Shown here: in pieces, positions 7,241 through 47,915 of the stretch | Numbering within the stretch: the stretch's first letter is position 1 | Layout: each line of letters begins with the position of its first letter | Source of the DNA: Escherichia phage vB_EcoS-BECP10 | DNA length: 47,915 bases | Sequence record: MW286156.1 | Strand: one strand, 5' to 3' | Notes under the pieces: model-generated | Databases searched by the model: none | Told to the model about the DNA's origin: nothing | The model's input: the letters and a program-made list of their open reading frames with translations, nothing else | Position numbers and translations under genes: made by a program

Positions 7241-7429
7241 TTAACGGTTTACGCAAATAAGTGTGTTTACATTAATTGGGAAGCAGTTACCACCAATGGT
7301 CTTAATCATTACGAAAATACAGCCAGGGTAATACTCAAGGCTTGTAGCCTTAACTACCTGCGGTGGGCAGTTTAAGAACAAAACTTCATCACCCACCTTA
7401 ACCATGTCGGCTTTAATTGTTTGAAGCAT
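7241..7429 (-). CDS. Hypothetical protein (62 aa)
   Basis: ORF track; start overlaps the stop of 7429..7614. Confidence 0.4.
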   Translation of the reverse strand: MLQTIKADMVKVGDEVLFLNCPPQVVKATSLEYYPGCIFVMIKTIGGNCFPINVNTLICVNR

Positions 7430-7614
7430 TAGCGCTCTCCAAGTGCATCTAGGATTGCGTAGGCAATTTCACGAGCATTTTTAGCAGTAAGATTGATAGT
7501 GTCAACTTTTACATCTTCTTCGCTAGAGCCGTATGCCTGCGCAATCTTAAAGGTCTTACCAAAACCAACATCTTTAACTTCGATTTGTGCATCTGATTGT
7601 GTGAATTTAGCCAT
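7429..7614 (-). CDS. Hypothetical protein (61 aa)
   Basis: ORF track; first gene downstream of module 9; RBS AGAGGA. Confidence 0.5.
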   Translation of the reverse strand: MAKFTQSDAQIEVKDVGFGKTFKIAQAYGSSEEDVKVDTINLTAKNAREIAYAILDALGER

Positions 7615-7691
7615 CTTTGTATCCTCTCGTTTGTTTAGATGGGGTAACTATACCCCATCTTTTGATTTTCGTTTTAGCAATTCGTGCTATT
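7615..7691 (-). promoter_or_regulatory. Promoter module 9 (minus): IR 7675-7689, hairpin overlapping TATAGT, leader variant CATCTAAACAAACGAGAGG
   Basis: Minus-strand reading AAATAGCACGAATTGCTAAAAC then GGGGTATAGTTACCCC and a box-2 variant. Confidence 0.55.
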
Positions 7692-7953
7692 TAGACTTTA
7701 TTTGACTCCACTATATAGCACTCAAGGACAATCTTTTTATCATCAACATTCATCGTGCTGTGATTAAGCCAATCAACAACCGTTCTTAATTCCACTCATT
7801 CATGGTAAATCTCTTTTCCAAGTTCACAATACTGTTGAGATACCAATGGAGATGAAAGGCTTGCAACTAAAATCATCTCTGTAATCATTTTGATTCCTAT
7901 ATCTGTAGCTGACGCATCTCAAAAGCCTCGAAGGGCTTTAACAAAAAGTGATA

Positions 7954-9087
7954 TTATTTGAACATTTCTGGACGGCAGATAAAGCGACCAACCTCACCAA
8001 ACTCTTTATGATAGATGATTACCGCGGCCTGCCTTTGTGAGCGCCATCCACTATTCGCACTATATGCATCTGGTGAACCAATCTGACCATGAACCTCATC
8101 AATACCAAGATTTGTCTCTGTAATCTTCTGTGAATGCCAGTGGCCTGAGTGGGTGTATACATAATCACTTAAACCAAAGTCACGTCGCCAGTCAGTAGCC
8201 ATAACCGAAAGGCGAGTATCAGCTTTACGCATTTGATGCCCGTGAGTGAAACCAAGCATTGTAGAACCAAACTTAGTTACCATCATTGCCGCGGGACTAA
8301 CATCAATACTAACGCGTGGCTCTTCCTCATAAAATGCAGCAAGCGCAGCCCGCAACCAAACCATACCACTTTCATCATGATTACCAGATATAACTTTAAC
8401 CTCTACGTTTTCATGTTTGCTAAGCATGTTTCGAATTGCGCGGCGAACCGCTCGAATGCAAACATAAACAATCTTGGCGTAGCGACTGTCACTGTCCAGG
8501 ATGTGACCACTGGCTGGAGTTTTGGCTTCCAAAGAATCATAATGAAGCAGATCACCTCCTAGCACTAGTACAGCATTCTTTGAATTTGGAGATTTCTGTA
8601 TGGCGTAGTCAAAATAATCGTTCATTACTTTCTCTGCCGTTGCTGTGTCGTAGTTTTCTCCGCACTCATGCTTGTGGGCCATTGCGCCAATGTGAAGGTC
8701 AAATACTGGATACATAGCTAAAGTATCTTCATCAAAATTCAGACCTTCAGATTTAACTGCTTTTTCTTTTGGTAGCTCGCTAGAGAATGCCTCTCGCGCT
8801 TGATTCATCATCTCCTCAAGCTTCTCTGCATCAATAGAGGACTTAACCCATTGCAACTTCACATTGCCATCATTATCAACAAGGCTAGATACACCTTTAA
8901 CCATGTAGCCCTGAGGAATTAGGTTACTCACATCGCGACCGTGACCATCCCCAGCCTTAGCCAACTTGCTGCGACGCAGCTCTACGTTACGAATATTCAT
9001 ACCGTACTTCTCTGCGATTGCCTTGTTAGTCATACCGTTAGCCAGTTCTTGCTTTAACTCTTCGTTGGTGATTTTAGCTATAGCCAT
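7954..9087 (-). CDS. HTH-containing calcineurin-like metallophosphoesterase (377 aa; possible nuclease or phosphatase)
   Basis: Metallophosphoesterase motifs DLHIG, GGDLLHYD, GNHDE, THGH, HSGHWH; N-terminal HTH-like segment MTNKAIAEKYGMNIRNVELRR. Confidence 0.65.
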   Translation of the reverse strand: MAIAKITNEELKQELANGMTNKAIAEKYGMNIRNVELRRSKLAKAGDGHGRDVSNLIPQGYMVKGVSSLVDNDGNVKLQWVKSSIDAEKLEEMMNQAREAFSSELPKEKAVKSEGLNFDEDTLAMYPVFDLHIGAMAHKHECGENYDTATAEKVMNDYFDYAIQKSPNSKNAVLVLGGDLLHYDSLEAKTPASGHILDSDSRYAKIVYVCIRAVRRAIRNMLSKHENVEVKVISGNHDESGMVWLRAALAAFYEEEPRVSIDVSPAAMMVTKFGSTMLGFTHGHQMRKADTRLSVMATDWRRDFGLSDYVYTHSGHWHSQKITETNLGIDEVHGQIGSPDAYSANSGWRSQRQAAVIIYHKEFGEVGRFICRPEMFK

Positions 9088-9101
9088 TATTTAATTTCCT
9101 G

Positions 9102-9170
9102 TTAGCAGATTATGAAGTACATGATTATAAAGGTTAATGGCATAGCCATCAACGGTAGTAATGTTTTCAT
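9102..9170 (-). CDS. Possible 22-aa hydrophobic leader peptide (MKTLLPLMAMPLTFIIMYFIIC) between module 10 and the phosphoesterase gene
   Basis: Hand-translated; sits exactly between the conserved leader box and the RBS of the 377-aa gene; may be non-coding. Confidence 0.2.
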   Translation of the reverse strand: MKTLLPLMAMPLTFIIMYFIIC

Positions 9171-9243
9171 CTGAATCGTCTCTCGTTTCGATGAACACAC
9201 TATACGCCATCCATGGCGATGTGTTTTAACAAAAAGTGCTATT
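9171..9243 (-). promoter_or_regulatory. Promoter module 10 (minus): IR variant 9227-9241, hairpin CGCCATGGATGGCG, TATAGT, TTCATCGAAACGAGAG
   Basis: Minus-strand AAATAGCACTTTTTGTTAAAAC then hairpin, TATAGT and leader box. Confidence 0.6.
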
Positions 9244-9496
9244 TTACTTCTTTTAGCCAGTAATCAAGAAACTCAGTTTCTAGAGCAGAAATTGCTGGTG
9301 AATACTCACTAGGCATCATCATATTGCAACCTGGCGAATAGTACATCAACTCAGCTTTACCAATCTCAATTTGCACCAGTACATCGAGGTAGTCCGGAGG
9401 AATCCACTCAGAGAAAGGAATCTTCCGATAAGGCTTCTCACCAAAAAACACAACCTGATACTTACTCTCATCAAAATCTAGACCAGGTAAATTCAT
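9239..9496 (-). CDS. Hypothetical protein (85 aa)
   Basis: ORF track; TAG stop lies inside the IR of module 10. Confidence 0.45.
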   Translation of the reverse strand: MNLPGLDFDESKYQVVFFGEKPYRKIPFSEWIPPDYLDVLVQIEIGKAELMYYSPGCNMMMPSEYSPAISALETEFLDYWLKEVK

Positions 9497-9777
9497 TTCT
9501 TCGCACCTTTCTTAAATATCTTCTTACCTTCCTCACGATACATTGCGAGGCTAGGCGTTGCTGTAACTCTTACATACTTGCGTGGCCGCTGGTTCATATA
9601 ACTAAACTTCCCATTGAAAACTACAGATATGTCATCAATATCAAAGTATTTACCTATCATCTTGATGTCATCCTGCAATCCCGCCTCTCCACAATGCGCC
9701 CATACAGCGGCGCGTCCTGTTTCAACTATCATAGGCCGTAAGCCATTTTTAAATATTCTCGAGCGCACATCCAGCAA
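9493..9777 (-). CDS. Hypothetical protein (94 aa); 5' end overlaps a 41-aa ORF in another frame (9729..9854)
   Basis: ORF track; the true start or a frameshift is unresolved. Confidence 0.35.
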   Translation of the reverse strand: MLDVRSRIFKNGLRPMIVETGRAAVWAHCGEAGLQDDIKMIGKYFDIDDISVVFNGKFSYMNQRPRKYVRVTATPSLAMYREEGKKIFKKGAKK

Positions 9778-47816: not shown

Positions 47817-47915
47817 ACGAATAGCACTTTTTGCTAAAGACAAATGGGGATGGCAAGGCTATAGTAAACTCATCAACAACGAGGAGATAGATATGAAGGT
47901 AAAAATAACAGCACT
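47817..47915. repeat. Second copy of the terminal direct repeat (duplicates IR module 1 and the first codons of the 77..271 gene)
   Basis: Identical to 1-99. Confidence 0.9.

Follow-up and report, generated by a model that had tools for sequence, protein, structure and literature searches.

The genome of Escherichia phage vB_EcoS-BECP10 (MW286156.1; the whole stretch analysed, 47,915 nucleotides, is called the window here) contains, directly upstream of a gene for a 377-amino-acid (aa) protein with a helix-turn-helix (HTH) and a metallophosphoesterase domain, a 22-codon open reading frame (ORF) that comparative sequence analysis identifies as a real conserved gene, which is the main new result presented here. 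The motif shared by its predicted products points to a single-pass membrane micro-protein, and its translation is probably coupled to that of the enzyme gene. The region as a whole can be read as a two-gene expression unit, comprising a repeat-module promoter, the membrane micro-protein gene, a coupled gene for a DNA-tethered nuclease-like enzyme and a terminator, and we give this reading a probability of roughly 60%. The enzyme gene is an already annotated yet uncharacterised core gene and the promoter repeat has already been published. What is new is a conserved gene for a membrane micro-protein, essentially absent from annotations and probably coupled to the enzyme gene, and with it a correction of the frame annotated in databases, a solid but moderate finding. 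The central features of the unit are the following:

9102..9170, minus strand: 22-codon small ORF, MKTLLPLMAMPLTFIIMYFIIC followed by TAA, interpreted as a conserved gene for a single-pass membrane micro-protein
9095..9100, minus strand: Shine-Dalgarno (SD) sequence AGGAAA of the phosphoesterase gene, starting 1 nucleotide (nt) past the small-ORF stop codon
7954..9087, minus strand: 377-aa HTH-metallophosphoesterase gene (Rogue1 gp57, T1 ST16), matching phrog_704 at E=1e-154

A conserved hydrophobic ORF upstream of the phosphoesterase gene

The original prediction, made from the letters of the window, described the 377-aa ORF and, between its promoter leader and its ribosome-binding site, a 22-codon hydrophobic ORF that might be a regulatory leader peptide, a small membrane peptide or nothing. 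Both ORFs are present, the smaller one (9170..9102 with its stop codon) lying 14 nt before the phosphoesterase ATG, and of the three suggestions for it "nothing" falls away, while the membrane peptide is favoured. When the sequence upstream of the enzyme gene was extracted from this window and 83 related loci (84 in total), a hydrophobic ATG-initiated ORF of 22-29 codons was found to end 1-14 nt before the enzyme ATG in 75 of them. These ORFs represent 44 distinct DNA sequences and 37 distinct peptides, with a mean Kyte-Doolittle (KD) hydropathy of 1.3-2.3; the peptide of T1 reads MKLYFAVVLTPLISFSVMYFIIM, and those of other groups include MKSLILVALVPLFSFTILYFIVMN, MFGYFGVVFTPVIAFTLIYLIVM, MRYISVILLPPVIAWVIMYSVVMN, MRIIIMWRLLLLPLPVMMAISIVYVVIMR and MRYIIVCLIPVPLAFIAVYLLIFKV. 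Relative to the enzyme gene, the small ORF occupies frame 0, +1 or +2 depending on the lineage and is therefore not an N-terminal extension of the enzyme, and it stays with the enzyme gene where the upstream gene differs (loci L012 and L013).

The substitution pattern is that of a coding sequence. Over 136 same-length pairs, the differences at codon positions 1, 2 and 3 number 398, 179 and 726, and the Nei-Gojobori ratio of nonsynonymous to synonymous differences (pN/pS) is 0.35, compared with 0.79 and 2.10 in the shifted frames of the same alignments. A random 24-codon stretch of the same composition would stay open with a chance of about 0.2 per lineage. As a control, the window ORFs of at least 80 aa were searched for a hydrophobic ORF ending 0-20 nt upstream, and a comparable neighbour was found for a single one of the 63, namely the phosphoesterase gene itself.

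Alignment of the peptides gives the consensus M-x-x-L-x4-L-x-P-x5-I-M-Y-x-I-I-M, with the shared motif M-K/R...P-x7-8-Y-x3-M. The second residue is basic, a Pro stands near the centre with a Tyr 7-9 residues further on, and a Met lies four residues past the Tyr. These positions map to one helical face, and every variant has a 19-residue stretch that reaches a KD of 1.65 or more (usually >2.2, and 2.29 in the peptide of this window), properties that would fit one membrane helix presenting a conserved face for interaction. Ten peptide variants were compared with Pfam and NCBIfam at E up to 10 without a relevant match, to curated models of small membrane toxins and micro-proteins (Ibs, TisB, ShoB, Hok and others) or otherwise; no PHROG family matches any variant, and a literature search on the Drexlerviridae returned no transcript, ribosome-profiling or proteomic data. 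In the alignment, the 29-codon variants (MRIIIMWRL...; L072, L075 and L081-L088) have an internal Met at the point where the 23-26-codon variants (MWRL...) begin, so that translation of the longer ones may really start at this second ATG.

The small ORF is generally absent outside the T1 family, and within the sample it has been lost, with the enzyme gene kept, in about seven loci (L033, L073, L080, L090, L091, L092 and L021). In two TLS-type loci (L090 and L091, ~1310-1500) a 62-aa HNH/AP2-like ORF directly upstream of the enzyme gene takes its place, and in L011 (~1385-1470) a promoter-repeat copy replaces the start of the small ORF, leaving the remnant ...IALFATTLPFAFGIMYELIMNN and its stop. 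The pairing is therefore a trait of the Drexlerviridae that is not obligatory for the enzyme. In a different type of phage (L095, 3351-3600), the enzyme of which is 39% identical, two membrane-type small ORFs of 39 and 45 aa lie directly upstream. The 45-aa ORF was considered as a relative of the peptide, as NYAI is common to it and some peptides by eye, and was rejected, since hhalign finds nothing; neither ORF showed detectable sequence similarity to the T1-family peptide.

Probable coupling to the enzyme gene and alternative readings of the small ORF

The gap of 1-14 nt between the small-ORF stop and the enzyme ATG is a conserved feature of the gene pair across lineages. The SD of the enzyme gene directly follows or overlaps the last small-ORF codons, and in some lineages the C-terminal L-G(-A) of the peptide is encoded by this SD itself. 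At its other end, the small ORF overlaps the stop codon of the preceding gene with its ATG, as ATGA, in 25 of the 37 peptide lineages. Given these overlaps and short gaps, the small ORF would thus be one link in a chain of translationally coupled cistrons, and finishing its translation probably promotes initiation on the enzyme gene. A sigma-70-like site (TTGATG-17-TATAAT, 10/12 matches) lies inside the small ORF at 9152..9124 on the minus strand, where the AHP42 record annotates a promoter; the region has 3 such matches compared with 8.3 in shuffles, and the site was not taken as evidence. Such a site could permit expression of the enzyme without the small ORF.

The small gene is lacking from reference annotations because it falls below the length limits of gene callers. 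The T1 RefSeq record leaves the 78-nt gap between ST17 and ST16 empty, the records of Rogue1, UDF157lw and AHP42 do the same with a 151-nt gap, and the gap is annotated as a 39- or 46-codon ORF in a different frame in AHS24 (gp47), Phleasolo (Phleasolo_48) and AKS96 (gp43). By exact look-up in a collection of 15 billion proteins, none of the 22-25-aa peptides was found, and only two 29-aa variants were, both as "hypothetical protein" (Shigella phage ESh4 and Klebsiella phage K50PH164C1). In e4/1c (L014) and Jk06, the in-frame stop just before the phosphoesterase ATG has been lost and the records extend the coding sequence upstream over the small ORF. Jk06 JK_64P (258 aa), PHROG 20703 and PHROG 20762 look like split or mis-called pieces of the enzyme gene.

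Three other readings of the small ORF were weighed. The proposal that the true small gene of the gap is the 39-codon ORF (9210..9091) draws on its annotation in AHS24, Phleasolo and AKS96 and on its match to phrog_20703, but it is hardly credible, as this ORF simply arises from reading the enzyme frame through into the upstream sequence (TAA ATA ATG), has its ATG inside the -10 box and is present in Rogue1-like genomes only. In the comparison with e4/1c, 10 changes in the 39-codon frame are nonsynonymous (D>G, D>A, Y>S, I>S, stop>Y) and 2 are synonymous, against 4 conservative and 2 synonymous changes in the 22-codon frame. The 39-codon ORF was rejected as a gene on account of its read-through nature, its restriction to Rogue1-like genomes and this substitution pattern; it has seeded a spurious PHROG family (PHROG 20703) and, in Jk06 and e4/1c, the coding sequence of the enzyme that is extended upstream.

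The 22-codon ORF might alternatively be nothing but a coupling device, an upstream ORF that is read through to reach or unmask the enzyme start and that yields a functionless peptide. The constant 1-14-nt gap and the SD that overlaps or abuts the end of the small ORF would be expected of such a device, as would the leader RNA of this window, which folds at -24.8 kcal/mol (z -3.07) with small-ORF codons 8-13 paired to the enzyme AUG. This AUG-masking helix was rejected as a conserved mechanism, however, as 17 other lineages, among them the close relative L014, either lack it or show it without significance, and the dominance of third-position changes with a pN/pS well below that of the other frames, as well as the persistence of hydrophobicity and of the P...Y...M motif across lineages whose DNA cannot be aligned, make the coupling-only reading distinctly unlikely. 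A further idea, retained from the original prediction, is that of a cis-acting regulatory leader, the nascent peptide of which would stall the ribosome near the stop codon and thereby tune expression of the phosphoesterase. Conservation is indeed strongest in the final 7-8 residues (IMYxIIM), and a peptide of 22-29 aa is short enough to sit wholly in the ribosome exit tunnel and within the length range of known arrest leaders such as TnaC. Its uniform hydrophobicity and the basic residue 2 are nevertheless features of a membrane helix, unlike known arrest peptides, no conserved RNA switch follows downstream, and Rfam, searched with 7400-9600 at E up to 1, gave no match, so that an arrest leader appears very unlikely. 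The preferred reading, a membrane micro-protein gene tied physically and probably translationally to a core enzyme gene, thus adds a conserved gene that reference annotations lack; it should enter the annotations of the Drexlerviridae, and the 39-codon calls should go.

The phosphoesterase family and its probable activity

The 377-aa protein combines two recognisable parts:

8956..9066, minus strand: N-terminal tri-helical HTH, residues 8-44, of LuxR/GerE or sigma-70 region 4 type
7957..8733, minus strand: catalytic domain of the metallophosphoesterase (residues 119-377), which contains the full set of five motifs

The motifs are D130-L-H132, G178-D179-L-L-H182, G235-N236-H237-D238, H282-G-H284 and G315-H316-W-H318. 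The motif set proposed from the sequence alone is thus right for DxH, GNHD, H and GHxH and has to be amended at one point, as the supposed GDxxD is GDxxH (D184 is also conserved). All motifs are invariant among 16 homologues of 60-82% identity; in a 60-sequence alignment at ~30-40% identity D130, H132, D179, N236, H237, H282 and H318 are invariant, and among these 60 diverse homologues conservation is complete or no lower than 90% at D130/H132, D179/H182, N236/H237/D238, H282 and H316/H318. The five metal-ligand motifs and the beta-sandwich phosphoesterase fold place the protein in the calcineurin-like superfamily. With 19.7 bits it stays below the gathering threshold of Pfam PF00149 (Metallophos; cut-off 21.5), and only 15 of 60 family members match Metallophos at E<0.01; the phosphoesterase is a divergent subfamily without a curated model of its own.

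The HTH-like segment that had been noticed at the N-terminus is weak in the single sequence (GerE, E=0.038) and becomes clear at the level of the family, the members of which match the Pfam HTH models GerE (2.4e-8) and Sigma70_r4_2 (1.5e-9), while the family profile retrieves GerE and other LuxR-type DNA-binding chains from the PDB at E 0.009-0.1. PDB and NCBIfam searches with the single 377-aa sequence were uninformative. A profile search of 1.84 billion representative proteins returned 5,404 clusters at E <=1e-3, of which 1,378 lie below 1e-30, and nearly all are 370-420 aa long and matched over their full length; the HTH-phosphoesterase architecture therefore defines a large family. Within the Drexlerviridae the gene is present in 508 of 522 genomes. 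Sources label it "phosphoesterase", "DNA repair exonuclease" (PGAP, PHROG 704), "winged HTH domain protein" or "DNA polymerase II small subunit", and none of those checked has a specific name for it; the Rogue1 paper makes no statement on the gene, and no characterised family member was found in the literature or in database and viral structure searches.

An AlphaFold model built with a diverse alignment is confident (predicted local distance difference test score, pLDDT, 90.9) and supersedes an earlier one from a shallow alignment (pLDDT 66), with which a Foldseek search had been uninformative. The modelled order is HTH helices (8-44, with helices at residues 8-16, 21-27 and 32-44), a flexible linker, a beta-hairpin and helix (61-102) and the catalytic domain (119-377). 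The folds nearest to the catalytic domain are PolD-DP1, SbcD and Mre11, and of all structural matches the top three, which also align over the greatest length, are nucleases; a viral structure library yielded matches only to uncharacterised phage phosphoesterases, from many phage groups. In distant members of the family the neighbouring genes always belong to DNA or nucleotide metabolism (RusA, NinB, SSB, a DUF3799 nuclease, RNA ligase, dCTP deaminase, nucleoside deoxyribosyltransferase and dGTP diphosphohydrolase), and in some members a polynucleotide kinase or dNMP kinase gene lies directly 3' of the enzyme gene (PMC13164509).

The enzyme would be a phosphodiesterase that is competent in catalysis and tethered to DNA, with a nuclease as the most probable kind. 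The original prediction had left the choice between an Mre11-like DNase and a protein phosphatase: the nuclease side is favoured by the fold matches and the HTH, and the structure prediction that had been proposed as a check does yield a nuclease-like fold, with a similarity to Mre11 and SbcD that is only marginal at the sequence level (E ~0.03). The phosphatase side, in the form of a lambda-phosphatase-like enzyme, shares the calcineurin-like superfamily, but the protein does not show what marks PPP-type enzymes, namely the signatures GDxHG, GDxVDRG and GNHE together with a closest fold match to PPP enzymes; the option is disfavoured and highly improbable. An enzyme that acts on nucleotides or nucleic-acid ends instead of cutting DNA, for example as a 2',3'-cyclic phosphoesterase or 3'-phosphoesterase in end healing or in the turnover of nucleotides or signalling nucleotides, is conceivable but unlikely, since the nucleases among the best fold matches and the conserved DNA-binding-type HTH fused to the enzyme argue for DNA as the substrate.

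The promoter-type repeat module and the terminator-like hairpin

An inverted-repeat module had also been predicted in front of the gene pair, and it is indeed there, with the repeat, the hairpin, TATAGT and the leader all located at 9244..9180. The flanks of the unit thus consist of:

9224..9244, minus strand: 21-nt T1-family direct repeat AAATAGCACTTTTTGTTAAAA, matching the published consensus aaATAGCACnnnTTGnTAAAA, between the 85-aa gene and the small ORF
9205..9218, no strand assigned: short inverted repeat CGCCA-TGGA-TGGCG in the spacer that leads from the 21-nt repeat to the -10 box, with a terminator-like score on the plus strand
9199..9204, minus strand: hexamer TATAGT resembling a -10 box, its distance to TTGTTA of the repeat fixed at 22 nt
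9180..9193, minus strand: conserved leader CATCGAAACGAGAG, common to other module copies
7921..7939, minus strand: terminator-like hairpin AAAGCC-CTTCGA-GGCTTT followed by T, directly 3' of the enzyme stop

The repeat at 9244..9224 holds the dyad TAGCA-N6-TG(T)TA (general form TAGCA-N6-TGCTA) and overlaps the coding end of the upstream 85-aa gene, the stop codon of which is the TAG of ATAGCAC (9241..9239). From the position of the -10 box we infer a transcription start near 9192, and GAGAG in the conserved leader is likely the SD of the small ORF. The terminator-like hairpin lies within the next repeat copy (AATATCACTTTTTGTTAAAG, 7955..7936), and in the AHP42 record the corresponding site carries an annotated rho-independent terminator.

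About 20 good copies of the module occur in the window, all facing a gene start 12-40 nt past the -10 box, for example at 5, 840, 1802, 2000, 2963, 3507 and 21004 on the plus strand and at 7690, 9242, 9928, 10613, 13009, 18490, 20647, 28183, 44974 and 46097 on the minus strand. Their layout is ATAGCAC-N4-TTGCTAAA with the internal dyad, a 19-20-nt spacer, TATAGT and the leader CATCGAAACGA; the window has 6 occurrences of the combined -10/leader pattern, where 0.01 would be expected, and 10 of the upstream box, for which the expectation is 0.85. The distance from TTGCTA to the -10 box is fixed at 22-23 nt, and there is therefore no normal -35 element, with the dyad centre near -42, a position typical of class II activators that suggests a site for a dimeric activator. 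Immediately before the -10 box, the spacer often holds a small hairpin, which reads (T)CGCA-AGGA-TGCG(A) at copies 3507(+), 10613(-) and 44974(-), and of which the hairpin before the small ORF (9218..9205) is a compensated variant. Read on the opposite strand, the spacer hairpins are terminator-like, and in some copies the hairpin is a terminator. In T1-type genomes the module is absent at this junction, and the Rogue1-like phages have therefore acquired a promoter of their own for the pair of small ORF and enzyme gene.

The repeat aaATAGCACnnnTTGnTAAAA has been published for phage TLS, where it occurs in 21 copies and where its function was left open between a stoperator, an enhancer site and an UP element, and it has been noted in T1, Rtp and Rogue1 as well (PMC11447400). 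Like the TLS repeat, the copy at 9244..9224 is intergenic and oriented with transcription, and the ~20 copies of the window compare with the 21 of TLS. To the published repeat the present analysis adds the internal dyad, the fixed distance of 22-23 nt to TATAGT, the leader and the frequent spacer hairpin.

Comparison with known systems and proposed mechanism

In the proposed mechanism, one copy of the repeated promoter-type module (dyad repeat, hairpin, TATAGT and leader) would drive a transcript of which the first cistron, the 22-codon gene, would yield a single-pass hydrophobic micro-protein. With the enzyme SD directly after the small-ORF stop, ribosomes that finish on the first cistron would be positioned to initiate on the second, the product of which would be held on DNA by its LuxR/sigma-region-4-type HTH, tethering the two-metal phosphoesterase domain there. 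The enzyme would most likely cut DNA within phage DNA and nucleotide metabolism, either in the breakdown of host DNA for nucleotide salvage or in the processing of replication or recombination intermediates, and the terminator hairpin would close the unit. It is speculative that the sigma-region-4-like HTH recognises the dyad of the 21-nt promoter repeats.

The enzyme differs from Mre11, SbcD and PolD-DP1 in that the sequence similarity is marginal (profile E ~0.03), and from Mre11 also in its N-terminus, an HTH and beta-hairpin module, as well as in that nuclease activity is here only predicted. No gene for a Rad50/SbcC partner is annotated beside the enzyme gene in Rogue1, UDF157lw, AHP42, T1 or the distant contexts. 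A closer parallel in function is offered by phage T5, in which the pre-early protein A1, a predicted metallophosphatase, is necessary and sufficient for degradation of the host chromosome, the DNA-binding protein A2 is also essential, and gene 005, encoding a protein with two transmembrane segments between A1 and A2, is dispensable (bioRxiv 10.64898/2026.04.02.716235). Both systems bring together a phosphoesterase-type protein, a DNA-binding function and a neighbouring small membrane protein; unlike in T5, where these functions reside in separate proteins, the T1-family protein resembles a fused version, HTH plus phosphoesterase, placed after a membrane peptide. Homology to A1 was not shown, as hhalign of the 60-sequence profile against the single A1 sequence aligned 28 columns near GNHD..WL with a probability of 17%, and the 50 best viral fold matches of the enzyme do not include A1; no similarity was detected to A2 or, using the peptide profile, to gene 005. 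A1/A2 is thus a plausible functional model in the sense of "works like" and not of "member of".

Small hydrophobic single-helix peptides are familiar from the type I toxins Ibs, ShoB and TisB and from the regulatory membrane micro-proteins AcrZ and KdpF. The peptides described here are like them in length (~19-30 aa), in their basic N-terminus and single hydrophobic helix, and in an aromatic residue near the C-terminus; ...LISFSVMY of T1 resembles ...LISFSAY of Ibs, a resemblance unsupported by any library search. Unlike stand-alone toxin loci, the peptide is encoded as a coupled cistron of a phage operon.

A further step, tentative and rather doubtful, would make the micro-protein a dedicated membrane partner that anchors or gates the DNA-bound nuclease at the inner membrane, the pair being a compact counterpart of T5 A1/A2 that could be the host-degradation function of T1. 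T1, long used as a classical model phage and notorious for contaminating laboratories, has about half of its genes without a known function, and the older T1 genetics literature points to a function in degrading the host chromosome that has long been unassigned. In the accessible literature no paper mapping the T1 host-degradation locus was found, and the Metis preprint, considered as a source on the enzyme gene, was set aside because it concerns T4/T6 denA instead. If the enzyme is indeed the host-DNA nuclease of the family, the two genes would offer a simple and genetically tractable pair for studying the control of a phage nuclease, with relevance to defence systems that sense the breakdown of host DNA.

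Genomic setting

The window represents a Rogue1-like phage of the T1 family (Drexlerviridae). A 1.9-kb region around the locus is 99.7% identical to Enterobacteria phage vB_EcoS_Rogue1 and 74-99% identical to ~30 further T1-family siphoviruses (Drexlerviridae, Rogunavirus and relatives). All genes surrounding the phosphoesterase locus are on the minus strand, with a helicase, a VRR-NUC protein and small genes upstream and further small genes and a holin/endolysin/spanin cassette downstream. The next gene 3' of the phosphoesterase gene, a homologue of Rogue1 gp58 (65 aa; 7691-7888, minus strand), carries a premature stop in this genome at codon 31 (GGA>TGA), which leaves ORFs of 30 and 34 codons. 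Positions 1-99 of the window recur exactly at 47817-47915 (~100 bases, the first 60 nt starting again at 47817), so that the window either covers a terminal redundancy or wraps round a ~46-kb genome, and the same promoter module is found in both copies of this end repeat, at 44-69 and 47860-47885.

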